A stretch of DNA of 46,969 nt. Origin: a virus (lineage: Duplodnaviria; Heunggongvirae; Uroviricota; Caudoviricetes). Shown here piece after piece: positions 9,584 to 42,402 of this stretch (positions are counted from its first letter, which is position 1; every line of letters begins with the position of its first letter). Position numbers and translations under genes: made by a program. The stretch lies in the IMG/VR virus record IMGVR_UViG_3300045988_152627. One strand, given 5' to 3'. The notes under the pieces are model-generated. The model saw only the letters and a program-made list of their open reading frames with translations, ran no database searches and was not told the origin of the DNA.

Positions 9584-11047
9584 TTATTCAGAAAACAAGT
9601 TCAGCAGATAATCAGGATTATACTCCATGACGAACTCAATATCTCTGGCAGGTGAGAATGGTGTCATTTTTACATGGAATTTAACAATCCCGTCCATTAA
9701 TGACGTAATCGTGTTTTCAGACTGATCAAAGGTAACAACACCACCTGCAATATCCTGATTACCTGTGAGGCCGTTAAGCCAAATATTCGCACTTGTAACA
9801 ATCGATTCAATTAATCGACGGTTTGCAGGATTGTCTATTTTTGACCAATGCGAAAGAATTAACGTATTACCCACCCAGTTAAACATACGTCGGCAAACAC
9901 GAAATGCGTCTTTGGGGTCTGTAGATGTTGGATAAATAGCATTACGGTTTCCCCATGATTTCCAACCATCAAAATTAAGGCTTGTTACAATCCCCTGTCC
10001 ATTTAAGTAGTTTGCCTGGCTAATGTTAAGCCATACTTCACTGCCATCTTTACGTACAGCACCGTCCATCTGTAGTTTTATATTTGACGGAGAACGTGAT
10101 GGAATATCACCATACTGACTATCCAGCAAGCATGTTGCGGCCGCTAAATGGGTTGAGTGATGGTAAATATTGTCACCAAGTTTCACCATCGGCCAGCACA
10201 CTGTCTGGTTAGCGGCCATGTGATTATTGTTCTGTTTCCATTCAGGAACAGCCGAGTAATCACTGATAGTAGATTTATCGGTCGGCGCATCCGTTATAGC
10301 TTCTGCTTTGAACAATTCACTAATCAGCGCGGCTTTAGCCGCCATTAGCTGACCAACTTCACTATCAGAACTAAATCCAGGTGCAATCACTTGTCCAGGA
10401 ACTAACTTGAAGCGGGGATACACATCTGACAGTAACTCAAGCCCTGTATTGGCTTTAGTGTTGGAATCCACACCACCGATAATGTCATTTTTAGTTACGG
10501 CACCGGGATCAAGATGCGTATAACTAACCTTAAGAGTAGCGTCTTTTTCGGTAATTTTTCCTCCGCTAATAGCTGTAATGACCGTATAGCCATTATCATC
10601 CAGCGCCAGCACATAATCGGTATCAACCGTTAACCCAGGCGAATCACCATCTGCTTTTTTCACAACAACAGATTTATATAAGACACCATCGTTAGAGAGC
10701 GTACCTTTCCCGCCAGAAAGTTTTACTAACTCATCAGTAACGTCTTTCTTATGCTTTGCTGGATCAAGCACATTGATAAATACAACTGGCGCAACACCAT
10801 ATATTCCAAATGCGACTTTAATTACTTCGCTTAAAGTATATTTCTCGAAGTTTGTGCTATATCCTATTTTAGATACGGCCTCTGCGTATGTATAAGCAAT
10901 GATAGGTTTATTTACCGCTGAGGCTGGATCTTCTAACTGATTAACAGGAGCCGTACCAAATGCGACAATCAACCCAGCACTAACTTGCACTGGAGGAGTT
11001 ATAGATGTAGCCAGTTCAGATATATAAATACCGTGGCGATATCCCAT
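9584..11047 (-). CDS. Contractile tail sheath protein (FI-like)
   Basis: 487 aa, first gene of the sheath-tube-chaperone-tape measure block. Confidence 0.75.
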   Translation of the reverse strand: MGYRHGIYISELATSITPPVQVSAGLIVAFGTAPVNQLEDPASAVNKPIIAYTYAEAVSKIGYSTNFEKYTLSEVIKVAFGIYGVAPVVFINVLDPAKHKKDVTDELVKLSGGKGTLSNDGVLYKSVVVKKADGDSPGLTVDTDYVLALDDNGYTVITAISGGKITEKDATLKVSYTHLDPGAVTKNDIIGGVDSNTKANTGLELLSDVYPRFKLVPGQVIAPGFSSDSEVGQLMAAKAALISELFKAEAITDAPTDKSTISDYSAVPEWKQNNNHMAANQTVCWPMVKLGDNIYHHSTHLAAATCLLDSQYGDIPSRSPSNIKLQMDGAVRKDGSEVWLNISQANYLNGQGIVTSLNFDGWKSWGNRNAIYPTSTDPKDAFRVCRRMFNWVGNTLILSHWSKIDNPANRRLIESIVTSANIWLNGLTGNQDIAGGVVTFDQSENTITSLMDGIVKFHVKMTPFSPARDIEFVMEYNPDYLLNLFSE

Positions 11048-11337
11048 TATTTAATCTCCATGATAGAAGAAGAAACTCTAGAGTACATTACATACTCGAC
11101 ACTGGTTTTATCAGAAAGTCTTTTCTCTGCATCTGCAAAATCACTGGTTGCCACAAACAAACACTTTGCACCAGGAATATGTGATATTAATTTTTTACAC
11201 TCTGGAGATAAGCCATTCTTAAATAGTTTATGCTTCAAAATTGAGAGTTGAGGGATTGTTGGTCCTATATATACAAATGTTTGAGCAACATCTTCCTTCT
11301 TTTCTATATCTTCTTTACTACTTTTCTTATTAGCCAT
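11047..11337 (-). CDS. Hypothetical virion-associated protein
   Basis: 96 aa ORF coupled into the structural operon between head and tail modules. Confidence 0.35.
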   Translation of the reverse strand: MANKKSSKEDIEKKEDVAQTFVYIGPTIPQLSILKHKLFKNGLSPECKKLISHIPGAKCLFVATSDFADAEKRLSDKTSVEYVMYSRVSSSIMEIK

Positions 11338-11823
11338 TTAGATAAACTCCTGAGACTGAATATTCTGAGGCTTTAATACTAGCCACGTTCCAGTTGCTTC
11401 CGTTATCCAATATGGATACGGTTGATCATCAAACATTCGCCATCTGATATCGCCCTGAAAGAGAAATTTCTCTTCAAGTAAAGGCTTCTCCTGAAAATGA
11501 AACATCATCCTTTCAAGAAGAGCCATTACCCATTCATATCCAGTATGGTCCTCACAAAAACCACCTAGAAGAAACTTAACCTTAACTTCATCCGTTTCAG
11601 GCTGCATTCCTCCTTCCGTGGGCCTGATAATCACATGAGGAAATTCTGGCGGTTTATCTGGAGATGGTTGTGATTTAGGAGGCAAGTACCCTTTAAATAT
11701 TGTTGGAACAAACAATTTAATATCGCTGTCTGTTTCATCATAAGGAGGCCCCTGCACTAATAAATCATGGAAAACCTCATGTTCCAACCGATTTTTTATT
11801 GCATCTATCAAAAGATTAATCAA
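11338..11823 (-). CDS. Hypothetical protein, possibly tail completion / head-tail joining
   Basis: 161 aa ORF in the head-tail junction block; no recognisable motif. Confidence 0.4.
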   Translation of the reverse strand: MINLLIDAIKNRLEHEVFHDLLVQGPPYDETDSDIKLFVPTIFKGYLPPKSQPSPDKPPEFPHVIIRPTEGGMQPETDEVKVKFLLGGFCEDHTGYEWVMALLERMMFHFQEKPLLEEKFLFQGDIRWRMFDDQPYPYWITEATGTWLVLKPQNIQSQEFI

Positions 11824-12164
11824 ATCGGCATTCCTCTGTTAGTATTAACAGTGAGAGTTATTTCCAATACACCAACATTATCTGATACTTCATCAACAAT
11901 ATAATTTTTACCGTTGATTTTCATTGACTGGTCTTTGACAGGGAGAACAGGAAAATCTTTTCTTGAAACAAATAATATTATTTGCCCCTGATTTATTCCC
12001 TCTGCAAACTCAGCATATGAGCGTTTATTCCGCTCATGAATAAGGTCTGTATCAATAACGGCAAGGATATCCTTGCCGTCTATGTTATATGTATCGGCAA
12101 ACTCTTTTTCATTGAGGAATATTGCAGAAATATCTTGCGCTATAACCTCTTTGAAGGAGTTCAT
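11820..12164 (-). CDS. Hypothetical protein, possibly head completion / adaptor
   Basis: 114 aa, overlapping starts and stops with neighbours. Confidence 0.4.
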   Translation of the reverse strand: MNSFKEVIAQDISAIFLNEKEFADTYNIDGKDILAVIDTDLIHERNKRSYAEFAEGINQGQIILFVSRKDFPVLPVKDQSMKINGKNYIVDEVSDNVGVLEITLTVNTNRGMPI

Positions 12165-12556
12165 TACTTCTTATTACCTTTTTTTTGCGTTGATTTTTTC
12201 GCATTACTGGTATCAGAAGTAGCTACAGATTCAGATGAATCATCAGCAACCGTTTCCTCATTGCCGCCATCATCCTCAAACTCAACCTCGAATACACAGC
12301 TACCCGCCTCCGTTCGCGTAATCAACCCCGCGTCCACAGCATCATTAACAGCAGATGCGTATCCATGCTCAAAAGCTAACTTAGCAGCATCATAGCCCCC
12401 GGCCGATGCCAAATCACCATCCTCTTCGGTGGCAATAGCATGTCCTGACGCAATCAGTTCGGCAATTCTGGAGTTATCCATTAGCCCATTAAGCAAACGG
12501 CCCGCTTTTAGCGAGCCGTGGCTTATCGTATCAATGTTTTTAATCAGTCTGGCCAT
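12164..12556 (-). CDS. Hypothetical protein, possibly head completion (acidic C-terminus)
   Basis: 130 aa directly downstream of the major capsid gene. Confidence 0.4.
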   Translation of the reverse strand: MARLIKNIDTISHGSLKAGRLLNGLMDNSRIAELIASGHAIATEEDGDLASAGGYDAAKLAFEHGYASAVNDAVDAGLITRTEAGSCVFEVEFEDDGGNEETVADDSSESVATSDTSNAKKSTQKKGNKK

Positions 12557-13600
12557 TTAAACCACCTTAGCCACCAGATAGGCATCAGCCACACCAGGAT
12601 TAGGCAGTGGAGATGACTTCATGGCAACATAACGGCCAGCCGGCTTACGAGTTACCCAGGTGTCTGGAACTCGTGGTGACTCAACAATCGTTAGAGTCTT
12701 TTCGGCGTCATCTACAAGCTCTACAGCACCATACAGCATCGTTCCTCGACCAGGAGAGCCAAAGAGGATCTTATCTTCCGGTACTAATGGTTCTGGTTTT
12801 CCTGTTTTATCATTGCGAATAAGTTCGTCGTAACCATAAAAATCGACACCTTCAAGATTGCCATAATGAGTTACGCCTTCTTCTAACTCCTTAGGCTCAA
12901 TATACCCAAGCTCTTTTCGGCGATTATCAAGATATTTAGTTACTGCTTCATTTTTAACGAAAGCATCAACAACTTTTGCGCCCATTACGGCAACACGAGG
13001 TGTAAAACCTGAAGTTAGTGATACCCGACGTTTCCAGTTGCGAACATTGACCAACGGATCTGATTTTGCTGCACTCCATAAATCATCACCTGTCAGTTCA
13101 AGATATGGTTTATCTCCTTCCTCTTCAGGCCAAAAATAAACTGTGTCATCCACACCTTCACCAACAATATCAACCTGCCCCGTAAACAAGACTTGTGCAC
13201 ACATCCATTCTTCACGGCGGTTAACCATTTCATCAAGCTCAAGCAAATCTTTACCTAATTGCTCGGCGGCTCGTTCTGCTGGCGATTTTGCGTTGTAAAT
13301 ATTCTCACCCGGAAGCCTGTTTAAAAGCAGCTCTGCTGTTGTTACCAAATCAGGTGCAACAAGTGGTGGCTCCAGAGTTCTCGTTACAAAGCCGCGTCGC
13401 TCAACGGTTTTTGAGCCAAAACCTTTACCAACAAACGGAGCCATAGTACGGCCACCGCGAACAAAATCCAGATCAACTTTCTTTGTATTAAAGGTCTGAA
13501 CACCAGGAAAAAAGGTACGAAGAAGAAAACGACGAGCCTTGAAATTCTGAATAACAGGCTCAAGCATTGTACGTCGTTCAAAAATATCAATATTCGGCAT
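12557..13600 (-). CDS. Major capsid protein, lambda gpE-like
   Basis: 347 aa; C-terminal PDTWVTRKPAGRY...SSPLP resembles the lambda E NWVTTGDPAR...SAPLM region; follows the decoration and protease genes. Confidence 0.8.
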   Translation of the reverse strand: MPNIDIFERRTMLEPVIQNFKARRFLLRTFFPGVQTFNTKKVDLDFVRGGRTMAPFVGKGFGSKTVERRGFVTRTLEPPLVAPDLVTTAELLLNRLPGENIYNAKSPAERAAEQLGKDLLELDEMVNRREEWMCAQVLFTGQVDIVGEGVDDTVYFWPEEEGDKPYLELTGDDLWSAAKSDPLVNVRNWKRRVSLTSGFTPRVAVMGAKVVDAFVKNEAVTKYLDNRRKELGYIEPKELEEGVTHYGNLEGVDFYGYDELIRNDKTGKPEPLVPEDKILFGSPGRGTMLYGAVELVDDAEKTLTIVESPRVPDTWVTRKPAGRYVAMKSSPLPNPGVADAYLVAKVV

Positions 13601-13620
13601 AAAAATACGACCTCTTTATA

Positions 13621-14004
13621 TTATGCAGATGGATTTTGTTGTGCGGTGTTAAGGAATATCCCAACCTTCCGGCAAGCCAGATATACATCGGCAATCTTTG
13701 CTGATTCAGGAAGGATAACCGCATGTGCATTGAACATTCCGGTCAGCCATGCTGTTCCAACTTGCGCTGAATCAGTCGCATCAATACTGTGTTGAGCGAT
13801 ACAATACGGTTCTTTTGCCACCCCCTCACCAGAGAGATTTATTGGTGCTACAGTGACAACATTTGTTGTCTGATCAATACTGACAAAAGCAAGCAACTCA
13901 CCTCGATTTACTTTACCGCTGGCAAGTTTAATACTTGTTGTAATTGCTGGCATACCACCAGAAATAATCAGATTATCTGGTTCAAATGAAAAAGACTCTC
14001 GCAT
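13621..14004 (-). CDS. Head decoration protein, lambda gpD-like
   Basis: 127 aa between protease and capsid genes, the lambda C-D-E order. Confidence 0.55.
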   Translation of the reverse strand: MRESFSFEPDNLIISGGMPAITTSIKLASGKVNRGELLAFVSIDQTTNVVTVAPINLSGEGVAKEPYCIAQHSIDATDSAQVGTAWLTGMFNAHAVILPESAKIADVYLACRKVGIFLNTAQQNPSA

Positions 14005-14013
14005 AAACTCACC

Positions 14014-15102
14014 TTAATTTTTATCGCGGTTTTTAAATACTGACCCAATAACATTTTTTACTACTTCAGCTTGTTTATCGCCGTTGTTTTCTGGTTGATT
14101 AACATCAACTGAATCATTCACCTCATTTGCGTCTTCTTGCCGTTGATTAAGAAAGTTTTTGTTACGCGCTCGCTCTGCATTCATAATTTCCAAAGCAAGT
14201 TCAGCCGCAGAAACTCCCGTTTTGAATTTTGCATTCTTAACCAGGTCGTCATGACCTGGAATCACGCTATTCTCGATTGTTTCAATGCGCTCGCGTTCTG
14301 ATTTAACGCCCTCGTCTTTACCAGCATTAAAAACCTGATTGTATAATTCTGGATGTTTATTTTTTAATTCATCAAGAGTCACAACATCGTCCTCGGTTTG
14401 TTCATTTAATTCAGTAGATAATTCATTTTTATTTTGTGGCAACTTTGCGAGCGAATCAGGTAATTTTGAAAACCTTGATGCTTCAAAAGTTATTCCATTG
14501 AGCGAAAGCATCCCTTCCTTTATAGAAGCGGATAAACGCATTGGTTTTTCAACTTCGTCAGCAAACCCAAGCTCAACAGCTTCTTCTGCATTTAGCCAAG
14601 TTTCCTGATCCATTAGTTCAATTAACTTATCTTCAGAAAGTCCTGTCTTCTCCTTATATGCAGATAAAATACTATTTCGTATCTTATCCATCATCTCAGC
14701 AATATCACGCAATTCATCCGCATCCCCCATTGCCCATGTCCACGGATTATGGATCATCATCATAGCATTAGATGGGATAACAACTTTATCACCTGCCATT
14801 GCAATAATGGTTGCAGCCGATGCAGCAATACCATCAATATAAACTGTAATATTAGCCTTATGACGTTTTAATGAAGAAAGAATAGCTTGAGCTGTAAAAA
14901 CAGAACCACCATAACTATTAATTTTTACGTTGATAGCATTTGATGAAATATCCTTTAATTTATTAACTATGTCAGAAGAAGAAACCTCATCAAATTCACC
15001 AATATACCCGTATATTAAAAGCTCAGCCGGAGTGTCATCTTCACCCGTGCTATTTTTTATTTCCCACCAATTAGGCATCATCAGTCTCCATATTTTGTTC
15101 AT
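14014..15102 (-). CDS. Head maturation protease / scaffold, S49 (ClpP/SppA-like), lambda gpC-like
   Basis: 362 aa with INSYGGSVFTAQAI...GIAASAATIIAMAGDKVV...MMIHNPWT, characteristic of S49 peptidases. Confidence 0.8.
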   Translation of the reverse strand: MNKIWRLMMPNWWEIKNSTGEDDTPAELLIYGYIGEFDEVSSSDIVNKLKDISSNAINVKINSYGGSVFTAQAILSSLKRHKANITVYIDGIAASAATIIAMAGDKVVIPSNAMMMIHNPWTWAMGDADELRDIAEMMDKIRNSILSAYKEKTGLSEDKLIELMDQETWLNAEEAVELGFADEVEKPMRLSASIKEGMLSLNGITFEASRFSKLPDSLAKLPQNKNELSTELNEQTEDDVVTLDELKNKHPELYNQVFNAGKDEGVKSERERIETIENSVIPGHDDLVKNAKFKTGVSAAELALEIMNAERARNKNFLNQRQEDANEVNDSVDVNQPENNGDKQAEVVKNVIGSVFKNRDKN

Positions 15103-16645
15103 TTACCTCAGAAACAGGAGGATTAATAAGCCCCAACTCACGGCGAGCATTCTCTTCTCTGCCACAAATTTGTGCGGTTTCTTCCCAGTTAAGACCTGAC
15201 ATTTCAGCCGCTTCCTTTTCACGGGTAGAGAATGTTTCCTCAACACGCAGTTTTGCAGCTTTGACTTCTTTAAGGGGATCTAATTGGCCTTGTGATGGGC
15301 CATACCATTGAGCGCCACTCCATGCAGCGCGATATTCAGGCCCATAAAAAAAACCAGGGGCAATAACACGACCTTTAGCAACGGCTTCGGCCAACCATTC
15401 CTCATAGATCGGTTGGCAAAATGACTGAACCATCCAGTCACGTCGCATACGGAACATTTTCCAGGCTTCAAGTAATGCGGCCCTGCTTGCGCTATAACTT
15501 GCTGTAAAATGCTTTACCAAGAGTTCGTAAGGGAGTTCTAAAGCAGCCCCAATTTGACGGCATATGGCGACAACAAAACCATCAAATGCCGTATTTGGTC
15601 GCCCGGGATTTGCTGTATCTATCGACTCACCTTCACCCAAACTTACTATGGAGCCATTCCCCATTTCTTGGGTGTTATCATCATGGTTATCGATCTGCTC
15701 GTACTGAGGGATACCCGATTCACCGACTGGTCCATCAGGTGCGTCTGTTTTAATAAAGACAGTAAACATCCCTGACACAACCGCAGCAACCAATTCAGCA
15801 TCGGTGTATCGTCCTAACTGCTTCAATGCTTCAATTACAGGAGCAAGGACAGGAACGCCACGGCGTTGCCCAGGCCTTTCAAAATCCTGCATGACATGCA
15901 GAATATTTCTTCTTCCTGTTTTACTCCCATATGCGGGAATACGTTCCCACTTGCGGGTTACAAAACCAGAAGTCCCGGCTGGGTGATGTTTTGCAACCCA
16001 GTACGCCACAGGCTCGCTAAATTCACCAACCTCTACGCCACCGTAAAGATTTGGTATAAAACGATCCTCTGGATTGCAAACACGATCACCTTCAATTAAA
16101 TAGACGCACAAATCATATATAACCCCCTTACGCTTAATAACTGGTAGCGCAGCAAATATATCGCCAGATGTTAACGCAGATATTTGGACCAATGATTGCA
16201 ATTGTCCAAAAGTACACATTCTTGATGCATCACAATTTGGAGAATCAGCCCATAATCTAAACTCACGCTCAACATGCTTTTCCCATGCTCGCGCTTCTTC
16301 CTGCGTCATCCCCAAGAAATCGGCATCAATGTTCGCATTTAGTTTTAAACCGGAACCAACAACGTTTGTCCTGATAGTTTTTATTGCGCCAACCGATAGC
16401 GGGTTTCCCATGAAGAGATCACGAGAACGCTCACGCAATTTATCTATATTTTTAACAATATCATCATCAGGAGAACCAGCTTTACTAAACCAACCCCTTA
16501 ATGATTTTTTATGAGTGCTTGCACCATGACGTGAATATCCAAGGTTATTAATACCTTCAAGTGCTTCTAACCGTTTTCTTGCCAAAGCTCGATTTAATGC
16601 CCTCTGAGGTGAAAACGGCGCAATAACTCGATCAAGAATATTCAT
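15071..16645 (-). CDS. Portal protein, lambda gpB-like
   Basis: 524 aa between the gpW-like and protease genes. Confidence 0.8.
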   Translation of the reverse strand: MNILDRVIAPFSPQRALNRALARKRLEALEGINNLGYSRHGASTHKKSLRGWFSKAGSPDDDIVKNIDKLRERSRDLFMGNPLSVGAIKTIRTNVVGSGLKLNANIDADFLGMTQEEARAWEKHVEREFRLWADSPNCDASRMCTFGQLQSLVQISALTSGDIFAALPVIKRKGVIYDLCVYLIEGDRVCNPEDRFIPNLYGGVEVGEFSEPVAYWVAKHHPAGTSGFVTRKWERIPAYGSKTGRRNILHVMQDFERPGQRRGVPVLAPVIEALKQLGRYTDAELVAAVVSGMFTVFIKTDAPDGPVGESGIPQYEQIDNHDDNTQEMGNGSIVSLGEGESIDTANPGRPNTAFDGFVVAICRQIGAALELPYELLVKHFTASYSASRAALLEAWKMFRMRRDWMVQSFCQPIYEEWLAEAVAKGRVIAPGFFYGPEYRAAWSGAQWYGPSQGQLDPLKEVKAAKLRVEETFSTREKEAAEMSGLNWEETAQICGREENARRELGLINPPVSEVNEQNMETDDA

Positions 16646-16892: not shown

Positions 16893-18749
16893 CTATATGG
16901 TTACGCCTTTACTTATAACTCTACGGCGTCTTCTACGTATACCTGACGAGTTCTGCACATACACATTACCTCGCATTTCCTGTTCGGCAAGCCAGTTAAA
17001 ATTAGGGTTCAGAATTTCCATCGCGGCAGTTGCATAGTTACGGCAATCAAGAGGCTCGTTACGCTCGTAGACTTTCACCCACTTTTCTTTTGTCTGCCCA
17101 TTTTTATATTCAAATATTTTTTTCTCTGATAATAATCCTTTAAAGTATTCGGTATCATATCCTCTGTCAGAATCTAATGGGAAATGCATATAACCAGGAC
17201 CAGGATCATGTAGTTTAATTCTTGCCATGATGGTCCCTTTACCATCATCAACCCCCAAATTAAACAACATAGCACCCACACGGTTATTATTACTTGGCTT
17301 TCCTATAAATGGTAAACCTACCCCACCACGCCCCCTGATAGAGTATATTCGCCTTGATTCTCTCGGCTTAGTAAAGCGATATACCTCTGTCGTAAAATGC
17401 CCACCAGAGTCAATACAAACGGAAGAAATCTGTAATTTTCGACCGTCACGGAATGACCAGCTACGGAGTAAGTATTCATCAAGTTGTTTCCAGACAACAT
17501 CTTGTGCGGGATCACCTGGGAATATTTTATATTCTATCCCCCATGACTCCTTACCTTTTCCCCAACCGACCAATTCACAAACTAAATACGTGTCCTGTAC
17601 GTCAACACCAGCACTTAACAATAAAACATCATCTGGCAAAAACTCTTCAAACCTTATTCTGCGTTGCAACAAGTATTCAGGATCGATATCGTCTTTAGCA
17701 TCCTCTTTCCATGGCTCACCCAGCTTAAGGTTAATAAACTCCATTAATCCATTTTTATCGCGGTTTCTGGTTGCTTCCGTAAATTCTTCAACCAGCTCTG
17801 ACAATGCAACCCACGGGGAGTAAAGACTGTTAATATGAAAACCAACAATACCTTTAACTCCAGTATGTTCAGCTATCCATACCCCCTTCGCCAACCAATC
17901 AACGTCTGGTTTACCAGATCCGCGCATAATCCCGCCGCACTCACAGCACTCATATCTGGCCGTTTCCGGTAACGCCTCACCTGAATCGCTCTTATCCCAT
18001 CTGACTTGCGACCATTTCATCACCTGCATGGTGCCACAACATGGGCAAGGAACATGGTAGTAACGCTGATCGGAGAGCTTAAACCACTTGTGGATTTTGC
18101 TCGTTTCCTCCAAAACAGGAGTAGAAACAAAAACTTTCTTACGATTATGAAAGTTGGTAGTACGCTGAATACCTAGTTTTAGTGGGTCGCCCTCCTGCGT
18201 CACACCGTAACGATCAATCTCATCAGCTAACAGTATTCGAATTGGCCTGGATGCAAGACCTGCTGGGGAATTAGCACCAACAAGTGCTATATATCCACCA
18301 GCGTAATGCTTCATACGTATAGTCGTGCTGGACTTTTTGGCTGCACCGCGCCCCTCTTTCCCTTCATGCAGCTTGTGTTTCAAACCAGGGGAATATTTGA
18401 ACGTCGGATCAATACGCTCTTTTGAAAAAGCCTCAGCCGCCTCTACCGTTGGATAAATCATCAACTGAGGAGATGGCTCCTGATCTGCAAAGTAACCCAT
18501 AACATTTAGCTGTAATTCGGATTTACCAATTTGCGAGCTACATTGCATCACTACTGTTTCTGTATCAGCGTCACCAATAACATCCATTGGTTCACGCAAA
18601 TATGGCACTCGGCTTGTACGCCACGGCCCTGGCTCTGGAGACGTTCCCGGCGCTACATGACGATACTTATCAGCCCATTCGGAAACAGTTAGCCGTGATT
18701 TAGGGCGAAGCGCACGGAAAAAAGCGGTGCTCCATACTGTTTCGCCCAT
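16893..18749 (-). CDS. Terminase large subunit, lambda gpA-like
   Basis: 618 aa; Cys-rich zinc-ribbon-like CPCCGT...CCECGG segment; size and position. Confidence 0.85.
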   Translation of the reverse strand: MGETVWSTAFFRALRPKSRLTVSEWADKYRHVAPGTSPEPGPWRTSRVPYLREPMDVIGDADTETVVMQCSSQIGKSELQLNVMGYFADQEPSPQLMIYPTVEAAEAFSKERIDPTFKYSPGLKHKLHEGKEGRGAAKKSSTTIRMKHYAGGYIALVGANSPAGLASRPIRILLADEIDRYGVTQEGDPLKLGIQRTTNFHNRKKVFVSTPVLEETSKIHKWFKLSDQRYYHVPCPCCGTMQVMKWSQVRWDKSDSGEALPETARYECCECGGIMRGSGKPDVDWLAKGVWIAEHTGVKGIVGFHINSLYSPWVALSELVEEFTEATRNRDKNGLMEFINLKLGEPWKEDAKDDIDPEYLLQRRIRFEEFLPDDVLLLSAGVDVQDTYLVCELVGWGKGKESWGIEYKIFPGDPAQDVVWKQLDEYLLRSWSFRDGRKLQISSVCIDSGGHFTTEVYRFTKPRESRRIYSIRGRGGVGLPFIGKPSNNNRVGAMLFNLGVDDGKGTIMARIKLHDPGPGYMHFPLDSDRGYDTEYFKGLLSEKKIFEYKNGQTKEKWVKVYERNEPLDCRNYATAAMEILNPNFNWLAEQEMRGNVYVQNSSGIRRRRRRVISKGVTI

Positions 18750-18754
18750 GAGGT

Positions 18755-19315
18755 TTATTCTTCCTGCTTAATAAATCGGGATTCCTGGAGCGCCTGAAGC
18801 GCAAAATTAATCTCGTCTTCAATAATGCGTTCGATCTCCCTGGCTGTTTTGCCTTCACAACGGGGAGCTGCTCTTGGAGCAATACTAAATAAGCGGCTAC
18901 GCAATTCATTAGCTGCCAGAAATGCATCATCCCTGACCGCATCTTTAGCGATGAGAGAGCCTTCCTTTTCTTCAAATTCAAGGCGTTTCAGCTTTGCCTG
19001 ATAAATTTTTTCTGCGGTCTTAGCCTTGTTGAATTGCACCGCAACACCGGAAGTACCACCAGCTAATCCGGCATCATCAGCGGGTAACTCTGGTTGTTCC
19101 GAAGATATCCCATGCCCTCTTTTTCCATTTTCAGCAGATACCTCACGACCAACCTGTCGGCTCGCTTCATAAGCCGCACTAGCTTTATCAAAATCCAGCT
19201 TGCCGCTTTTCAGCACTGGAATGCGACCGGAACGACAGAGCTTCGTAACCATTGCCGGAGAAATACCTTTCCGGCGGGCAAACTCTGACTTACTGACGAT
19301 GGCCATTACTTGCAA
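18755..19315 (-). CDS. Terminase small subunit, Nu1-like
   Basis: 186 aa with an N-terminal winged-HTH-like segment, immediately upstream of the large subunit. Confidence 0.6.
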   Translation of the reverse strand: MQVMAIVSKSEFARRKGISPAMVTKLCRSGRIPVLKSGKLDFDKASAAYEASRQVGREVSAENGKRGHGISSEQPELPADDAGLAGGTSGVAVQFNKAKTAEKIYQAKLKRLEFEEKEGSLIAKDAVRDDAFLAANELRSRLFSIAPRAAPRCEGKTAREIERIIEDEINFALQALQESRFIKQEE

Positions 19316-19896
19316 CCATTAGCAAGATACTGAACAAATCCCTCATGCGTTTCATGCGCGTCGTGGTACTGACGATAAACATCCAGCAACAATGCAATTT
19401 CCATATCCGTCGCGGGAATACGTTCTTTATCAATAGCCAGGTACTTAATTTGAACAACAGGGGAAGAATTATCGTCTTCTTCCTGCGGCTGTTCATCGCT
19501 TAACATTTCGTCAAGCTCTGCATCATTAAACCCAAGCAGATCAATATCAAAATCATCATCCATTAACTCTTTGACTTCTTCGGCCAGAAGCTGCATATCC
19601 CAGCCAGCATTTAAGGCCAGCTTGTTATCTGCAATCCTGTAAGCCTTCTTCTGTTTTTCAGAAAGGTTACTCAACCGAATCGCTGGAACTTTATCCATTT
19701 CCAGAATTTCGGCTGCTGCAAGCCGCCCATGCCCCGCAATCAGTTCATTCTTTTCATCGATCAGCACAGGATTAGTGAAACCGAACTCACGGATACTGTT
19801 CACCAACTGTTCAACCTGCTCATCTGAATGAGTCCGTGAATTTTTGGCGTATCTGAGCAGCTTACCGACTGGTAAATATTCGATTTTTAGAGCCAT
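19306..19896 (-). CDS. ParB/Srx-like nuclease-domain protein
   Basis: 196 aa; N-terminal ParB-box-like IDEKNELIAGHGRLAAAEIL. Confidence 0.75.
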   Translation of the reverse strand: MALKIEYLPVGKLLRYAKNSRTHSDEQVEQLVNSIREFGFTNPVLIDEKNELIAGHGRLAAAEILEMDKVPAIRLSNLSEKQKKAYRIADNKLALNAGWDMQLLAEEVKELMDDDFDIDLLGFNDAELDEMLSDEQPQEEDDNSSPVVQIKYLAIDKERIPATDMEIALLLDVYRQYHDAHETHEGFVQYLANGCK

Positions 19897-20452
19897 TTTT
19901 TAACCGCCATAACACAACAGGTTAAAGAAAACTGTTTAACTTATTGATACTAAAAGAGAAAAATGACGATCTTTTTACTCATAAAAATCACAAAAACCAG
20001 GATAATTATCTGATTTTATTAAGTTTTTATAAGTGAAAAGGATCTTGCGATGGTGTTTTGGTTAAAAGATTGGATGTATTTGCATGATTTATAACGATTT
20101 TTATCAGAACAACATCACATTGGTTAAAGATCTGCGCGTATCTTGATGATCTAAAAGAAAATTTTCTACTTTCTTTTTACCAGCACAAATACAGCAAAAA
20201 ATCACGTTTTCCCGATATTTTTCAATAAGATGAGTAAATTTCTTTTACCGCAACTTTTAACCTAACTTTTTTCACGTTTAGCTAGCCGAACATCGGGGTT
20301 CGAATGACCCGCATCCAACGCTTTTGGCCAGAAGGACCCAATTCTGCCGGACGATGAAACGATGCTCGTGCTCCCCCACAGACAGCCAGCGAGCGACGCT
20401 ACAGAACACAGTGAATACACTCTGCATAACAACACCATCAACCACACGATGA

Positions 20453-21172
20453 TTAACGAGAGAAAGTCTTAGAAAGAATGTCATCAATAGCCTTTGTGAC
20501 TTCATCAGCAAACGCATCCTCACCAGCACGCAGCGCCACGCCATGCCAATCAAGACGCTGCGAATAGTTAGGTTGCTGGATAAACGTAAGGATCAACGTA
20601 GGACGCCGCCCAACGCGCTGCCAGACGCCTGGTTGAAGCGGGTTACTTGTACCAGGTCGAACAACAAAAAACTCCGTAGGCTTGCCCTGACGGCGATTTT
20701 GATGCGCATCTCGCTGAACTCTTAGGCCAGATAAGACCTGCTGTAATTGCCCCCGCGAAATATTCCCATATTTGTCCAGCTTTGCGCCGGGACCAGGAGC
20801 AAGCTGCCAGCCGTTAGGCAAATATCCACCAGCCCTTAGCGCCCCTTCTGAGCGTTTGTACTGTCGTTGTCCACCTTCGATTTGCGGAGTCAACGTTACA
20901 GGGGCTGGCGTTCCTCCCCATTCACGAGCATACACAATGGCTGTAGGATCACTCTTCTTTGCGGCCAAAACGTAAGTAGAGTTCTGAATCCACGGCGTGG
21001 GCCTGTCAAATACCCGATTAATTTCATTCTTAATCGCAGCCTGAGAAGCCTTTGCCGTTCTGGTTGCCGCAAGCGCCATTGCGAACGGCAATTCGCGTTC
21101 TTCAAGGCGCTGGAGTTGTCGTTGAATATCCTGAGAAGAAAAATCCATCTTTATCTCAATTCTGTCAGCCAC
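20453..21172 (-). CDS. Hypothetical protein
   Basis: 239 aa ORF coupled to the ParB-MTase gene; no recognisable motif. Confidence 0.4.
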   Translation of the reverse strand: MADRIEIKMDFSSQDIQRQLQRLEERELPFAMALAATRTAKASQAAIKNEINRVFDRPTPWIQNSTYVLAAKKSDPTAIVYAREWGGTPAPVTLTPQIEGGQRQYKRSEGALRAGGYLPNGWQLAPGPGAKLDKYGNISRGQLQQVLSGLRVQRDAHQNRRQGKPTEFFVVRPGTSNPLQPGVWQRVGRRPTLILTFIQQPNYSQRLDWHGVALRAGEDAFADEVTKAIDDILSKTFSR

Positions 21173-21188
21173 CAGCGCCTCCTACACA

Positions 21189-22568
21189 CTACTTAATCAA
21201 CGGCCGGAAAGCCGCCAGCACATCATCAGATCGTCCGATTGTTGAACCACCAGGCAACGGCAACTCAAACTCAAAACGAACAGCTTTCTCCAGACTCGCC
21301 CAACTAAGGGAATCATCGTTAATGACGTGCAAATACCAGCTCTTACAGTTGAATATTGACCGCTTAATCCTGAAACCATGTACACGACACAACTGCTTCA
21401 CTTCATCATCAGAGTGAAACTTCTGGTAAAACCAGTGCCCCTTCCGGTACAACGCGGTAAAACCGTTATGATCAATAAAATAAAGCCGGCTTTTGGAACT
21501 CGCCGCTTGTGTTTGCTTCAGGACTGTTTCCAGCTCTCCACGGCTACGACCAGAAAAGAATATTGACCCACCAGCTTTACACAGGCCTTTCAGAACCGTC
21601 AGAACGGACCATTCAGCCTCGACACTATCGACCGAGTTCAAAACGCTATCGCAAATCACGTAGTCGTAACGCCCTCGCGTTTTTAAGTCGTCCACCAGCG
21701 TATCAATCATCCAGTTTGTTGCGGCCCTATCCAGAGTGTTTCCAGCGCCCTTACGGCGGAAAAGCTCGAGATCATGCAGGTTATATCCCTTTGCCCTGAG
21801 CATTCGCGCGTAGTCTCCCTGCCCCGAACCAAAATCAATTCCTCTTGGCGTCTTGGCAATGATCGGGAGGATCAACGACTCATACAGGTTTGATTTCAGG
21901 CTGCCACCATTACGCAACCGCATAAGCTGCGCATACGTCTGGATGTATGTTGTTTTCTCCAGATGAGAATACTCAAATACACCATAAGTTTTATTCAGAT
22001 AACTTTGGTATTTTTCCTTCTCAACATCAGGGATCACAAACACCGTTAGCGGTGTGCGCGTCATCTTCGCTGCTAATGCATACTGAGCACAGTGAATAAC
22101 CTCGCCAGACTGAGTAGCAACACACCCCCCCCACGGACCATACTTGATAACCAGTTCCGCTATGTTCTTTCGAACATATGCCATTTTCGCGCGCATATTG
22201 CCTGAGATCTGGCTTGCCGATACCTGAACAAAACCATGCTTATCTTCCAGACCGGACACCCTGCAACGCTCATCTCCGCTATCAAAATCCGTTCCGTTAT
22301 GCAGTTGGTTAAACCGTACTTCGTCGTATACCGTCGTTTCACAGGGCAACACATACACCGCAGCACGCGTTATTCCCAACTTACGTAGCGCCTTCGTCCT
22401 TTGGTGTCCCGCCACCAGCAAATCGCCGCGCACTATCAATGGCTTCACAAGCCCTAGCTCCCTGACGCTTTCCGCCAGCCTCGCAAGATCATCCTCACCG
22501 ATAAAACGCGGGTTATATTCCGCACCGCGTAGGTGCGTTATGTCGTAATTGAGGTGAAGCATCAGCAC
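21189..22568 (-). CDS. ParB/Srx-like domain fused to a class I SAM-dependent methyltransferase
   Basis: 459 aa; N-terminal LIVRGDLLVAGHQRTKALRKLG (ParB-like); C-terminal IDFGSGQGDYARML (motif I) and DYVICDSVLNSV; no DPPY/NPPY motif seen. Confidence 0.7.
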   Translation of the reverse strand: MLMLHLNYDITHLRGAEYNPRFIGEDDLARLAESVRELGLVKPLIVRGDLLVAGHQRTKALRKLGITRAAVYVLPCETTVYDEVRFNQLHNGTDFDSGDERCRVSGLEDKHGFVQVSASQISGNMRAKMAYVRKNIAELVIKYGPWGGCVATQSGEVIHCAQYALAAKMTRTPLTVFVIPDVEKEKYQSYLNKTYGVFEYSHLEKTTYIQTYAQLMRLRNGGSLKSNLYESLILPIIAKTPRGIDFGSGQGDYARMLRAKGYNLHDLELFRRKGAGNTLDRAATNWMIDTLVDDLKTRGRYDYVICDSVLNSVDSVEAEWSVLTVLKGLCKAGGSIFFSGRSRGELETVLKQTQAASSKSRLYFIDHNGFTALYRKGHWFYQKFHSDDEVKQLCRVHGFRIKRSIFNCKSWYLHVINDDSLSWASLEKAVRFEFELPLPGGSTIGRSDDVLAAFRPLIK

Positions 22569-23185
22569 ACCTCCCCAGCCAGCAATGCGGATACAAATCC
22601 GATATAGCTGCCATTATCATCAACATAACGAGACACCGCGCAGTCAAAACGATCCGCTTCCTCATCCGTTGCCGGGATTTTATGACCTCCAAATGACAGG
22701 TACTGAACTTTTACGCCTGATTTGGCCTCATCCTTCTCAAATGGGATATCCATACCCTCTGTGTCATCGTAGACCGCCGCACTCAATAAGTTATCCAGTT
22801 CGCGCTGAGTAAAACCAATTGAGTCCAGAGCAAAATCATCGGCCGCAAGATCTGCAAGCTCCGCGCTTAACAACTCTTCATCCCAACCAGCATTCAGCGG
22901 AATACGGTTGTCGGCCAGACGATATGCCTTCTTCTGATTCTCCGTTAGCCCTTCCAGAACAATGCAGGGAACATCATCCATCCCCAACTGAGTGGCCGCA
23001 GCAATTCGACCATGACCAGCAATTACAACGTTGTTCTCGTCTATCAGGATCGGATTAGTCCATCCGTACTCCTGTATGCTGGCAACAATCTGATCTACCT
23101 GCTCCACGGAGTGTGTGCGAGCGTTCTTTTCATAACCAATCAACACAGAAAGTGGTAAAGAAACCACATTAAGATGTTTTGTCAT
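22562..23185 (-). CDS. ParB/Srx-like nuclease-domain protein (paralogue of 19306..19896)
   Basis: 207 aa; LIDENNVVIAGHGRIAAATQLG and overall collinear similarity to the 196-aa ParB-like protein. Confidence 0.75.
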   Translation of the reverse strand: MTKHLNVVSLPLSVLIGYEKNARTHSVEQVDQIVASIQEYGWTNPILIDENNVVIAGHGRIAAATQLGMDDVPCIVLEGLTENQKKAYRLADNRIPLNAGWDEELLSAELADLAADDFALDSIGFTQRELDNLLSAAVYDDTEGMDIPFEKDEAKSGVKVQYLSFGGHKIPATDEEADRFDCAVSRYVDDNGSYIGFVSALLAGEVC

Positions 23186-23420: not shown

Positions 23421-23450
23421 AAAAAACAAAACCACCCGCAGGTGGTTTTA
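23421..23450. terminator. Bidirectional rho-independent terminator
   Basis: Hairpin AACCACC-CGCA-GGTGGTT flanked by an A-run upstream and a T-run downstream; ends the minus-strand operon 25081->23478. Confidence 0.6.
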
Positions 23451-23477
23451 TAAATAAATAGCAAACAGGTATCTGCA

Positions 23478-23921
23478 CTAATCAGATAAACCAAACTTCT
23501 TCTTTGCCAATGACTTGAGAAGTTCTACACCAACATCCTTCATAACAGCCAATGGCTCATTGCTAATTTCTTTTAGTCTAGCGAAAACATCTTTGCTCTC
23601 TAGTGCACAGGCAAAATCCTGTCCCTCTGTAGTCAATCTAATATCTACATCAACAGTCCTCATTCCTGCAAAGGAATTAACATAGCCAAGACGCAGAGGA
23701 TCACGCGTTTCCATCTTCATATTGCTGATAAAACCTTGCTCAATCAATTGCATATAATGAAACATGCCCTTTTCTGAGGCTATATCAAACCCCGCATCTC
23801 TTAGTTGATTTACTGTTATGAACGTGCTTTCTGAATCCAAAAACACAGTCAGCATCTTTTTTAGATAATCTAGATCGGTGCGCATTTTACCCTCCTTAAA
23901 TGGAACGCAAATGTTACACAA
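23478..23921 (-). CDS. Hypothetical protein
   Basis: 147 aa (possibly starting at the internal Met); last gene of the four-gene accessory operon. Confidence 0.4.
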   Translation of the reverse strand: MCNICVPFKEGKMRTDLDYLKKMLTVFLDSESTFITVNQLRDAGFDIASEKGMFHYMQLIEQGFISNMKMETRDPLRLGYVNSFAGMRTVDVDIRLTTEGQDFACALESKDVFARLKEISNEPLAVMKDVGVELLKSLAKKKFGLSD

Positions 23922-25081: not shown

Positions 25082-25200
25082 CGGGTTATCTCCGGTTTAA
25101 CCAGGGCGGGTATCGCTCGGTTTCGGGTATAACATTAGGAAATTTTTTCCCACCTGTAAAGTACTTTTTATATAATTATATAATTATATAATTCTATGAC
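25082..25200 (-). promoter_or_regulatory. Promoter-leader cassette copy 1 (TTTACA-N17-TAATGT, about 50-nt leader, RBS GGAGAT)
   Basis: Minus-strand -35 at 25155..25160 and -10 at 25132..25137; near-identical to 32154..32275 and 42784..42900; (TATATAAT)x3 upstream of the -35. Confidence 0.6.
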
Positions 25201-25781
25201 ACTTGCCAGAGAGCATCATGCAACTGGATACCTCCATTGCACTGGTTGCCCCAGCCATGCCAGCCATCAGGTAAATCACCGCGAGCAAACAACTCAATAC
25301 GAGGAACATCGCCTAACAGCTTTACCAGCTTGTCACGGACCACATCAGGCTTCCGAGAATGCTCCAGACGAGGCGATGTAAACGACTGAATAATCCCCGC
25401 ATCAAGGCGGGTTGGCAGTTTGCCTTTTACCGCAAACAAGCAATCTTCACTGTTTGCACGAGTCATATGCCCCATCCCCATCACCAGCTTATCTGGTTGT
25501 CGGCTACCACATTTGTTCCATGTGAAGCCCTTCATGGTCATAAGCCTGAATCCCCATGCTTTCACCACCAGCAACGCTTCTTCTGGCTGAGTCGGAACCC
25601 ACCACATGGCCAACAAACACGATTCAGGATTAGCAAGCTGCCAGACAGGAATACGAGCAATCTCCTCAGCTTTCATCGTTGGATACTTAAAACCAGCGCC
25701 ACGATTCCCATCCTTACACTTGTCTTTGTATTCCCAGGGGGGATCTGCATAAATCAGATTAAACAATGCAATTGCCTCCAT
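25194..25781 (-). CDS. DNA N6-adenine methyltransferase, MT-A70 family
   Basis: 195 aa with the N-terminal DPPW motif (LIYADPPWEY). Confidence 0.75.
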   Translation of the reverse strand: MEAIALFNLIYADPPWEYKDKCKDGNRGAGFKYPTMKAEEIARIPVWQLANPESCLLAMWWVPTQPEEALLVVKAWGFRLMTMKGFTWNKCGSRQPDKLVMGMGHMTRANSEDCLFAVKGKLPTRLDAGIIQSFTSPRLEHSRKPDVVRDKLVKLLGDVPRIELFARGDLPDGWHGWGNQCNGGIQLHDALWQVS

Positions 25782-26083: not shown

Positions 26084-26159
26084 TTGGTGGCCCCTACCGG
26101 ATTTGAACCGATGACCGTGCGATTATGAGTCGCCTGCTCTAACCACTGAGCTAAGGGGC
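26084..26159 (-). tRNA. tRNA with CAU anticodon, most similar to tRNA-Ile2 (ileX-type); elongator Met not excluded
   Basis: 76-nt cloverleaf GGCCCCTTAGCTCAGTGGTTAGAGCAGGCGACTCATAATCGCACGGTCATCGGTTCAAATCCGGTAGGGGCCACCA: 7-bp acceptor stem, D and T arms, CTCATAA anticodon loop, encoded CCA. Confidence 0.85.
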
Positions 26160-26329
26160 CATATTTGATCTGTTTGTCTGGTGTGGCGCCGCGCACGAAA
26201 ATCCCAGCCAATAAATTCAGGATTTTTGGGCGCGGCGGCATATCAGACAAACATGGTTGATGCGTGCGCCCATGAGAAAAGCGCATAGAATGTTGTAACT
26301 ATATATTTATATAATTATAGAAATATATA

Positions 26330-37279: not shown

Positions 37280-37295
37280 ATTCAACCATAAAAAA

Positions 37296-37311
37296 GGCCC
37301 CCGAAGGGGCC
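37296..37311. terminator. Bidirectional terminator hairpin GGCCCCCGAAGGGGCC
   Basis: Perfect GC-rich hairpin flanked by an A-run upstream and T-rich sequence on the opposite strand. Confidence 0.55.
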
Positions 37312-37877
37312 TAATCGCTACTTGCTGCTAATGTTTATCGTCACATTCAGAGCGTTATCAGTAATCTTCCAACCCTCCCCATGTGGCGTAAACAAAGCCC
37401 CAGTAACAACGATAAAAATACACATACAGTATTTTTTCATTGTATGGCCCTTACAGGCCGTTTCACGGCATCCCCACCGACGAAAACAACGCGAGAGCAA
37501 GCACGGCTGCTTGTGCTTGCATGTACGGCAACAGGAAATCCTCCCCTAAAGTCGGTGCCCGGGTGCGAATCGGCGGGAAGGTCCACAGGTATTTTACGAT
37601 TATTTTAAGATTAGTAATAGGAAATAAATTAAACGAAAAAACCAGTTTATTTTCACAAAATCAGTAACCTACCCACAATCTGTGAGTTTGCAGACACAAC
37701 AAGAACCACAATTTTTTGAAGCATAATAGTGGACTATTATTACCTTTTGGGTAAAATCAACTTGCTGCTTGTGCTTGCGTGGTTGTTTATACAACAACGT
37801 AATGCTGAAAGGACCGCGAATCCGATCAGCACGAAAGAACCGTCCTCAATAGGGCGGTTTTTTTGTTTCTTCACTCA

Positions 37878-38569: not shown

Positions 38570-38864
38570 TGTCTCTGTTAAAATCCCGCCGTATTGACAT
38601 GAATGCGCCATTGGTGGACACTTTCCGAGCCGTAGCAAAATCTACGGTCGGGATTAGCCTCCTGAATAACACGATGGCGCATACCGCGTTAGCGGTTTTT
38701 TTATGCGTAGAGCACTGTTACGCCCAAATTATGGTGGGTCGTACAGGGGCGGAGAAATCCGCGCCGGTTCGTCATTGTGTCCGGTAAGGCTAACCCTGTA
38801 CGGCTCACCACCATTTGATTAGCCTCGAATGGCGGTGATAGTTCCATATATTGGAGATATCACA

Positions 38865-40865: not shown

Positions 40866-41500
40866 AGAAATCTCCTTTTAGATATAAGGGTAAAGCAATA
40901 TCGTATTAGATCTTCCTTAAGACACAACCCCCCCTCCCCCCATACAGGGTGCCCTTTACCGGAGTTCCGGCCCCTTCTCAAAAGCATCAAAAAAAGCTCG
41001 AGATCGAGTACCGGAACTCATGCCACCAGATAGCTCCACATCGTTTCCAATGCTTCGCCGCCGTGTGCGCCCTGTGGCCCACAATCATGCCATTGGTCGT
41101 CTGATATACCTTCTTCTGCTCATTGAGCACAGGCGAGTTGTCGCACTCCTGCCTTTCTCAGACTCGACTTAGTTTAGATCGCTGTTCCTGGCTTGCGTCA
41201 GCACACTTTCCCCTTGTACGCATACCCGCGCGCCACTTCGCCCAAAAACACCGAACCCAACGAAGTAGCAAAGACAACGACGCGAGCGTGAGTCTGAAAC
41301 GTGCACCAGTAAAAAAGGGGTTGCAGGCGCAAAAAGATTTGATTATCTTTAGACGCAAGAAAGCCGCCCCAATCAAGAGGTGTCTTTTTAAATCCAGCCT
41401 ACCAAGCAAGATTTAAATTTCAGACTGAAAACCGCCCGGCAAGGCGGTTTTTGTCTTTCTGGCGCTTACATTACACCACCAGAAAACGATCCGTAAAGGA

Positions 41501-41773: not shown

Positions 41774-41874
41774 TACATCCTCTACCTTTCCCTAGATATT
41801 CAATAAATTAGACATAGCCACTCACGACAAAATAAGATGTATTAACAATCCAATCTTTAGGCTTTAGGTAAAAA

Positions 41875-42300: not shown

Positions 42301-42366
42301 CCCAATGTAAGTTATCGGCTTGCCCCACAATAAGTTATCTATCTTCAAACGCCCCTATATTAACAC

Positions 42367-42393: not shown

Positions 42394-42402
42394 GCATTGT
42401 GT

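Follow-up and report, generated by a model that had tools for sequence, protein, structure and literature searches.

A small ParB protein and a ParB-methyltransferase fusion form a conserved pair upstream of phage terminase genes, possibly a late DNA-modification system

The IMG/VR virus record IMGVR_UViG_3300045988_152627 (Caudoviricetes) comprises 46,969 nucleotides, and this whole stretch, hereafter the window, covers essentially all of a ~48-kb phage-plasmid of Escherichia coli. Four minus-strand open reading frames (ORFs) at 19306-23185 encode a small ParB protein (ParB-A), a 239-residue protein (p239), a fusion of a ParB domain with a methyltransferase that depends on S-adenosylmethionine (SAM), and a further small ParB protein (ParB-B). 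They lie just upstream of the terminase genes, as an earlier interpretation made from the sequence without database searches (the sequence-only reading) had observed. In the direction of transcription the locus reads as follows:

23426-23451, minus strand: strong intrinsic-terminator-like hairpin (11-bp stem and T run), just upstream of ParB-B
22562-23185, minus strand: ParB-B, small stand-alone ParB/Srx-fold protein, 207 aa (phrog_620, E 2.9e-74)
21189-22562, minus strand: ParB-methyltransferase fusion, 457 aa from the ATG at 22562 (phrog_5475)
20453-21172, minus strand: p239, predicted HK97 gp10-like neck or head-tail joining protein, 239 aa (phrog_1924)
19897-20452, no strand: AT-rich non-coding gap of 556 nt, holding the probable cosN and probably cosB-type sites
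20298-20309, no strand: probable cosN, a 12-nt cohesive end GGTCATTCGAAC read on the minus strand
19306-19896, minus strand: ParB-A, second small ParB, 196 aa (PF02195, 33.7 bits)
18755-19306, minus strand: small terminase, TerS (phrog_57)
16893-18749, minus strand: lambda GpA-type large terminase, TerL, the packaging gene downstream of the module

The sequence-only reading had described these genes as one cluster. The four ORFs do lie where it placed them, but they do not make up a four-gene unit: the cluster is composite, and only ParB-B and the fusion form a conserved unit. ParB-A, which is 48% identical to ParB-B over its whole length (E 1e-61), is a lineage-specific paralogue of the latter, and the arrangement with p239 and a second ParB after it occurs only in close relatives of the window (loci L014-L019, with fusions 69-99% identical). 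The terminator-like hairpin marks the upstream edge of the unit of ParB-B, fusion and p239. Within this unit the stop codon of ParB-B overlaps the ATG of the fusion as TGATG, which indicates translational coupling. An alternative start of the fusion, a GTG at 22568, gives the 459-aa ORF that had been listed earlier; the ATG at 22562 is nevertheless the most likely start, because the TGATG overlap, the RefSeq annotation and the N-termini of homologues agree, and the protein would then have 457 residues. The p239 gene starts with GTG, 16 nt downstream of the fusion stop and 5 nt after an AGGAGG. The stop of ParB-A likewise overlaps the ATG of TerS, as TAATG, and this indicates translational coupling to the small terminase.

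The fusion belongs to a large and homogeneous family. It matches phrog_5475, a family labelled "unknown function", end to end (E 5.8e-265), and its more than 700 homologues are of uniform length. A profile search of 1.84 billion representative proteins (E<=1e-30) returned 309 clusters at 50% identity, almost all of them 450-490 aa long and matched over their full length. Loci with a relative of the fusion were collected from viral contigs (77 loci, de-replicated at 85% identity into 51 groups) and from species-representative genomes (43 loci). The gene immediately before the fusion encodes a small ParB in 46 of the 51 viral groups, typically with an overlap of 1-8 nt, and in 36 of the 43 genome loci, which span about nine phyla; five of the seven exceptions among the genome loci have less than 700 nt of upstream sequence. 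Bacteroides phage BS-TP3 has the pair, with ParB (gp51), fusion (gp52), TerS (gp53) and TerL (gp54) in succession, and so does a lambdoid prophage of Serratia, where it stands behind the Q and lysis genes; chromosomally integrated prophages of Bradyrhizobium and Pantoea carry it likewise. Two metagenomic proteins, P0365 (658 aa) and P0367 (659 aa), are single-chain versions of the pair: an additional ~200 residues at the N-terminus can be aligned with an entire small ParB, C-terminal domain included, and are followed by the fusion protein. Where separately encoded proteins also occur naturally in a single chain, this is a classic indication that they function as a unit. ParB paralogues around the fusion have multiplied independently in different lineages. 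Three tandem small ParBs precede the fusion at two Bacteroidaceae loci (L128 and L129), and at loci of Chloroflexales (L108, L110, L113-L115 and L130) the fusion is situated among arrays of ParB-domain ORFs, some of 450-600 aa.

The position of the pair is likewise recurrent. Of 50 non-redundant viral loci, 46 have a same-strand ORF of 380 aa or more no further than 4 kb downstream of the fusion; the usual distance is about 1 kb. By Pfam these ORFs are assigned to GpA (16), Terminase_6 (17), Terminase_3 (5) TerL_ATPase/nuclease (3), a T7-type RNaseH-like domain (2) and DUF4055 (1), counts that may overlap between families. The module therefore precedes at least four unrelated large-terminase families. 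What these loci share is timing and place: the module is made together with the packaging machinery, when replicated concatemeric DNA is the substrate.

A third gene accompanies the pair in many lineages. An ORFan of ~145 aa, here called ORFan C2, directly follows the fusion in 57 of 83 viral and 17 of the 43 genome loci; it is rich in Cys and His and has the invariant residues W, K, HC, Y.CGV, N.H and CRN. It often overlaps the fusion gene and is sometimes convergent with it (examples are L008, at 2210-2644, L024, L027, L034 and L036). ORFan C2 has no Pfam, PHROG or PDB match, the PDB profile search having given only chance matches to ubiquitin, and a hidden Markov model search of all six frames did not find it in the window. 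In most lineages ORFan C2 probably belongs to the module as a third component. In the prophage region of Bradyrhizobium barranii (L006) the trio of ParB, fusion and ORFan is followed downstream, on the opposite strand at 10054-15404, by GGACT/AIG2-like, Amidoligase_2 and small N6_Mtase/MTS-like genes.

Three domains can be delimited in the fusion protein, for which the AF2 model has a pLDDT of 93.5 and a pTM of 0.90:

22275-22562, minus strand: ParB N-terminal domain (NTP-binding fold; NTP, nucleotide triphosphate), residues ~3-98 (PF02195, 24.3 bits)
21873-22274, minus strand: middle domain, residues 99-232, with conserved GPWGG, H159, QY, YG.F.Y and T..Q..AQ..R
21369-21872, minus strand: class I SAM methyltransferase domain, residues 233-400 (PF13489)

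The claim that the locus holds three ParB/Srx-fold genes stands, as matches to PF02195, PHROG and PDB profiles agree in assigning all three proteins to this fold. Against the PF02195 cut-off of 26.3 bits ParB-A lies above (33.7) and ParB-B (24.8) and the fusion (24.3) just below; the assignment of the latter two is supported by their matches to the PHROG ParB families and, for the fusion family, by the match to the Spo0J structure 6sdk. A profile of 50 fusion homologues recovers 6sdk at 1.6e-8, along with 7bnk, 6t1f and 7ng0 (1e-8 to 1e-4). The same homologues share invariant motifs in the ParB domain, namely YNPR (Box I-like), AGHQR (Box II) and E..FNQLHNGTD (Box III-like), and the domain is 28% identical to ParB-B over 74 residues. 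The middle domain has no Pfam match even at E<=10. In the AF2 model its order of secondary-structure elements repeats that of the ParB domain, residues 112-191 mimicking residues 4-92. A tandem duplication of the ParB domain was considered on these grounds; the hhalign alignment of the two halves is in register but non-significant (E 0.087), Pfam gives no match, and the duplication survives as a hint only.

The C-terminal domain matches Methyltransf_23 (PF13489) at 31.9 bits against a cut-off of 27, in agreement with the fusion to a class I SAM methyltransferase that had been recognised from the sequence. It displays the Rossmann-type fold, the glycine-rich motif I and the acidic residue after beta2 by which class I SAM-dependent methyltransferases are defined. 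Motif I (IDFGSGQG, residues 244-251, window 21816-21839) and E268 are invariant among the 50 homologues. After beta4 the protein has CDSVLNSVD instead of DPPY. The motifs [DNS]PP[YFWH], PCQ and ENV occur neither in the fusion nor in the 50 aligned homologues or the 83 homologues from viral loci, so the lack of a canonical amino-methyltransferase motif IV noted earlier extends to 133 relatives; as a positive control, the same scan finds DPPW in the MT-A70 enzyme that the phage also encodes. No match to PF00145, the C5-cytosine methyltransferases, was obtained for the fusion.

Among solved structures the profile of the fusion family matches UbiG-type methyltransferases at 7e-7. The best neighbours of the catalytic domain are UbiG, Trm9, METTL6, METTL9 and the toxoflavin and glycine N-methyltransferases, and the structural neighbours together span O-, N-, C- and S-methyltransferases that act on small molecules, tRNA, cap structures and protein. 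By these matches the domain resembles small-molecule, tRNA and cap methyltransferases rather than DNA methylases.

The small ParBs, both of which match phrog_620 at E 1e-74 to 1e-75, carry AGHGR as Box II. In 41 members of their family the residues N..R, GH.R and DN are conserved within the ParB fold (GH.R in at least 90% of them), and so is a C-terminal signature, T..E...L......Y....G...GF, in a domain that measures ~45 aa in ParB-B. Residues 1-150 are homologous to the N-terminal module of the ParB-fused N6/N4 DNA methyltransferases of type II (E 1e-38 to 1e-52; for ParB-B, 6.4e-38 with PADLOC PDLC03229 and 1e-50 with phrog_498). The small ParBs cover only positions ~7-180 of these two profiles and end before the PF01555 catalytic domain. 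The fusion covers only the first ~70 residues, which places it outside the family of ParB-N6_N4 methyltransferase fusions. Among the defence libraries PADLOC matched only this ParB module of type II methyltransferases, and NCBIfam gave only sub-threshold ParB/Noc matches. The domain scans found no helix-turn-helix (HTH) domain in the small ParBs and no ParA-binding motif in ParB-B.

Several described systems combine similar parts. The ParB-fused N6/N4 DNA methyltransferases (PF02195 with PF01555; phrog_498, PDLC03229) likewise join an N-terminal ParB module to a SAM methyltransferase; they are enriched in prophages, where they frequently neighbour terminase genes, as in B. cereus ATCC 10987 (PMC3592412). 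The fusion differs from them in its catalytic domain, a Methyltransf_23-type class I fold without DPPY, in a distant ParB domain, in an extra middle domain of ~130 aa and in the separate small ParB that is nearly always present. In the thymine dioxygenases 5mYOX176/ParB176 (PNAS 2026, PMC13229309) a stand-alone ParB adjoins the enzyme gene, by description much as it does here; the ParB176-type proteins consist of a nucleotide-binding and a C-terminal domain without a DNA-binding domain, are required for activity of the enzyme on dsDNA and act preferentially on their cognate partner. Their enzyme, unlike the methyltransferase of the present pair, is an Fe/2OG dioxygenase without a ParB domain of its own, and the window contains no 5mYOX, kinase or transferase genes. 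The Type IV restriction system GmrS1/GmrSD2 (Nat Commun 2025, PMC12373910) also pairs a ParB_N-only protein with a ParB_N-effector protein, but its ParB_N is of the DUF262 branch, its effector is an HNH nuclease, and it serves host defence rather than being a phage gene. The ParB CTPase clamps Spo0J, Noc and KorB have the N-terminal fold and the arginine of Box II in common with the module, which differs from them in lacking an HTH domain, a ParB-type dimerisation domain and a ParA partner, and in having GH(G/Q)R rather than GERR as Box II.

The architecture itself has been catalogued before. Fusions of a ParB-CTPase domain with Methyltransf_23 were listed in a survey (PNAS 2025, PMC12704722) as enriched in phages and prophages with function unassigned, and PHROG 5475 is the same family; both give the architecture alone, with no function, partner gene, synteny or substrate. 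Family and architecture are thus in the databases and in the 2025 survey, function, partner and context being undescribed, and the fusion falls in a catalogued family without known function (phrog_5475) rather than in a well-characterised methyltransferase family. The module is distinguished by a small ParB as its presumably obligate partner, a third gene that varies between lineages and a catalytic domain outside the DNA-methyltransferase classes. It is a variant within the known class of ParB-associated phage modification enzymes, neither categorically new nor well-characterised.

We tentatively propose, with somewhat less than even confidence, that the pair is a late-expressed, ParB-assisted modification enzyme that acts on phage DNA before packaging. 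This model builds on what the analysis shows directly: which domains the proteins contain, the invariance of their SAM and ParB motifs, the coupling of the genes, the single-chain versions and the conserved position before terminases. ParB-B and the fusion would be made from a late transcript that runs into the packaging genes. ParB-B, small and of the ParB/Srx fold, probably binds a nucleotide triphosphate and would act as obligate partner or activator of the fusion, and by analogy the two could associate through the fusion's ParB domain, perhaps by NTP-dependent engagement of their N-domains. The ParB folds would load the enzyme onto replicated phage DNA, which would be methylated before or during packaging, and the DNA might thereby be protected or marked for the next host. 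The chemistry would probably not be N6-adenine, N4-cytosine or C5-cytosine methylation; the methyl group might instead go to a ring nitrogen, to an oxygen or phosphate, or to a base that already carries a modification. ParB-A may have the same role as ParB-B or one related to packaging.

Precedents for single steps exist. Stand-alone phage ParBs without a DNA-binding domain activate their cognate DNA thymine dioxygenase on dsDNA (PMC13229309), a ParB_N-only protein, GmrS1, is paired with the ParB_N-effector protein GmrSD2 in a Type IV restriction system (PMC12373910), some fusions of ParB with SAM methyltransferases bind ATP (PMC12704722), and a ParB-methyltransferase next to the terminase of a B. 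cereus prophage has nicking activity (PMC3592412). The specificity of a ParB fold for CTP, ATP or GTP is not predictable from its sequence (PMC12704722).

A bolder version of the proposal, which we regard as doubtful, extends it to other lineages. The pair of ParB-B and fusion, with ORFan C2 elsewhere, would be a widespread phage DNA-modification system in which a heteromeric, NTP-gated ParB clamp carries a class I methyltransferase of the small-molecule type along replicated DNA prior to packaging; it would install a non-canonical mark (N7-G, N1-A, N3-C, phosphate or O-methyl) that methylome pipelines and the annotation of DNA methyltransferases miss.

A role of phage ParB-fold proteins in regulating DNA-modifying enzymes is beginning to emerge, with one experimental pairing so far, that of the thymine dioxygenase. 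If the partnership of ParB-B and the fusion is real, it would be a second and much more widespread pairing (309 clusters at 50% identity, about nine bacterial phyla). Should the fusion act on DNA, a new modification chemistry and a new route of restriction evasion would follow; should it not, the pair would be a new case of a ParB fold controlling a non-DNA enzyme.

Several observations weigh against the proposed action on DNA. The motif and profile matches indicate that the fusion is not a canonical amino (N6-A/N4-C) or C5 DNA methyltransferase, which bears out and sharpens the earlier statement that its substrate is unclear. The closest structures to the catalytic domain share only 10-20% identity with it, and scans of domain libraries revealed no recognisable DNA-binding domain in ParB-B or the fusion. 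The case for DNA as substrate comes from context, not from the catalytic domain, and literature searches returned no methylome, biochemical or functional data for any member of the fusion family. The slot before the terminase is a general hot-spot for accessory genes, and synteny alone is no proof of a function in packaging or on DNA. Exceptions to the common arrangement also exist: in Brochothrix phage BtpYZU02 the fusion is part of the replication module, without a small ParB and not beside the terminase, and the Chloroflexales fusion loci are without a nearby terminase. Furthermore, the phage already encodes what its profile matches indicate to be a conventional DNA methyltransferase:

25194-25781, minus strand: predicted MT-A70 family DNA adenine methyltransferase (PF05063, E 2.9e-23; phrog_359; DPPW motif)

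The alternative that survives best, though we consider it rather unlikely, is an anti-defence or host-reprogramming module with a non-DNA target, in which the ParB folds bind a nucleotide or nucleotide-derived signal or dock a host factor, and the methyltransferase acts on a small molecule, on RNA (for example tRNA) or on protein. The best neighbours of the catalytic domain, all of them small-molecule, tRNA, cap or protein methyltransferases, fit this alternative. The ParB/Srx fold also occurs in sulfiredoxin and in a serine kinase and binds ATP, CTP or GTP, and an anti-defence role has been proposed for phage ParB fusions (both PMC12704722); the conserved ORFan C2 could be a third catalytic or substrate-handling component. 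However, a place in the late operon directly before the terminase, kept across many phyla, would be odd for an early-acting anti-defence factor. The partner ParB is homologous to the ParB module associated with DNA methyltransferases, and no candidate genes of a small-molecule pathway co-occur consistently with the module.

The tight synteny with terminases could also be read as a sign that the module assists packaging itself. The ParBs would then serve as NTP-regulated nickases or clamps on DNA and aid the terminase in recognising or cutting concatemers, much as HNH proteins aid HK97-type terminases, and the methyltransferase would be regulatory or secondary. ParB-A, situated between cosN and TerS and translationally coupled to the latter, agrees with this, as does the nicking or DNase activity in the ParB domains of Osa and of the B. 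cereus ParB-methyltransferase (PMC5512222, PMC3592412). We nevertheless regard a packaging accessory as improbable. The terminases downstream of the module belong to at least four unrelated families and use both cos and headful strategies, and GpA has an endonuclease domain of its own. Because these families differ, sequence-specific recognition of pac or cos sites is unlikely, and the evidence favours a ParB-assisted modification enzyme over such recognition; the sequence-only reading had named DNA modification, anti-restriction and packaging-site recognition as candidate roles. Most lambda-type phages with the arrangement of p239, TerS and GpA have no ParB, and only one narrow lineage has a ParB-A at this place. 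Moreover, the strict conservation of SAM-binding and catalytic-pocket residues argues that methyl transfer is the selected activity.

Still less probable, in our estimation very much so, are regulators of late-gene transcription or DNA-clamp regulators in the manner of KorB, BisD or DndB, with the fused methyltransferase as a minor appended effector. ParB-like CTP clamps are described as controlling transcription in other mobile elements (10.1101/2024.09.16.613209), DndB is a ParB-like regulator, and the genes open the late operon, directly preceded by a terminator. Yet no HTH or other sequence-specific DNA-binding domain was found, and a cognate promoter/operator system is at odds with a module that has been transplanted, across many phyla, in front of late operons unrelated to each other.

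That the small ParBs are the partition (centromere-binding) proteins of a plasmid prophage, as database labels such as "chromosome (plasmid) partitioning protein ParB" and the replication of the element as a plasmid might suggest, is largely refuted already, as all three proteins score far below the TIGR00180 cut-off of 58.45 (40.1, 31.0 and 16.4 bits, with only the N-terminal ~75 residues matched), the HTH domain is lacking, the plasmid has a separate ParA with its own small partner gene downstream, and the same pair of ParB and fusion occurs in integrated prophages of Serratia, Bradyrhizobium and Pantoea. The database labels "partition ParB" and "nuclease" on genes of the cluster are unfounded.

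The 239-aa protein, which the sequence-only reading had left unrecognised, matches phrog_1924 end to end (E 2.5e-97), a family that PHROG labels "minor tail protein". Its fold search gave a single clear match, to a neck protein, and the protein shows the gp10 fold; no Pfam family, HK97-gp10_like included, was matched at E<=0.1. On these matches p239 is identified as an HK97 gp10-like neck or head-tail joining protein. It is more than twice as long as the neck proteins of the HK97 gp10 family, with insertions and long terminal helices, and its gene is placed at the far right genome end before cos, whereas HK97 gp10 is encoded among the head-tail genes. Its homologues comprise 106 proteins. In three unrelated phage contigs a p239 homologue immediately precedes a Nu1-like TerS and a GpA TerL, with an intergenic gap of 160-180 nt, and these contigs carry no ParB or methyltransferase genes. 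Because homologues occur in such a setting, p239 is best understood as a morphogenetic protein tied to lambda-type cos regions and outside the ParB system, and a part in that system was ruled out on the same grounds. Two further candidates were discarded: a profile-profile comparison of p239 with ORFan C2 gave nothing that would make the two analogues, and an endolysin, suggested by one homologue that overlaps a holin gene, was dropped given the clear match to the neck-protein fold.

The gap between p239 and ParB-A contains the probable cos site. Two Yersinia phage records that are 99% identical to the window, OR545053 and OR545055, break at window positions 20309/20310 and 20297/20298, exactly 12 nt apart. 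From these record ends we infer that 20298-20309 is the probable 12-nt cohesive end of a lambda-type terminase. With cosN between p239 and ParB-A, virion DNA would therefore start with ParB-A, TerS and TerL and end with ParB-B, the fusion and p239. Only short repeats of 9 nt are present in the gap, and no Rfam family matches within 19897-20452. A duplication of ~110 bp, considered on account of 9-mers spaced 201-214 nt apart, was rejected, the pairwise alignment being no better than expected for AT-rich sequence. For annotation the gains are a neck protein in place of a 239-aa "hypothetical protein" and the location of a probable cos site for this group of phage-plasmids.

The phage-plasmid combines a P2-like contractile tail with lambda-type packaging genes, RepA and ParA. 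The window shares 99% identity with plasmids of the standard laboratory strain E. coli ATCC 25922, which harbours the module on a 48-kb plasmid prophage, and with pP136-7, and equally with phage vB_EcoM-613R2 and the Yersinia phages vB_YpM_39, 41 and 44. The region of the module is present in 74 of 5,426 complete E. coli genomes (1.4%), through one phage-plasmid lineage; 78 of the 81 matching places in E. coli are on plasmids, which indicates plasmid replication of the element. This lineage's large terminase is found in 72 complete E. coli genomes against 74 with the module, and the comparison of terminase-bearing with module-bearing genomes is uninformative as to core or accessory status, the lineage being at least 99% identical. 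By comparison with the RefSeq record of pP136-7, the plasmid's own ParA is encoded ~13 kb from the cluster and is accompanied by a separate small partner gene downstream.

Directly upstream of the terminator and ParB-B, a DUF2513-like gene of 147 aa (23478-23921, minus strand; phrog_585) is variable among the otherwise 99%-identical plasmids, and those of the ATCC 25922 type depart from the window at ~23418. A tRNA gene with anticodon CAT is located at 26085-26160 (minus strand); near-identical genes are labelled tRNA-Ile in the RefSeq record of pP136-7 and tRNA-Met in a Yersinia phage record, and the product may be a Met tRNA or a lysidine-dependent Ile tRNA. The part of the plasmid concerned with maintenance and immunity contains a full-length match to the ryfA RNA family (37290-37586, minus strand; 143 bits against a gathering score of 80). 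Gathering-level Rfam matches to isrK (38629-38702, plus strand, 65.7 bits) and to the C4 antisense RNA of P1/P7 (38727-38815, plus strand, 70.8 bits) suggest an immunity element of the P1 immI antisense-RNA type in an otherwise non-P1 phage-plasmid, and comparison with pP136-7 places an ORF6N-domain gene in the same part. At 40950-43631 of pP136-7 (L001) a serine recombinase gene stands beside oppositely oriented tail-fibre assembly genes and a tail-fibre gene; this segment, to which a part of the window corresponds, looks like an invertible host-range segment of the Gin/Cin type.

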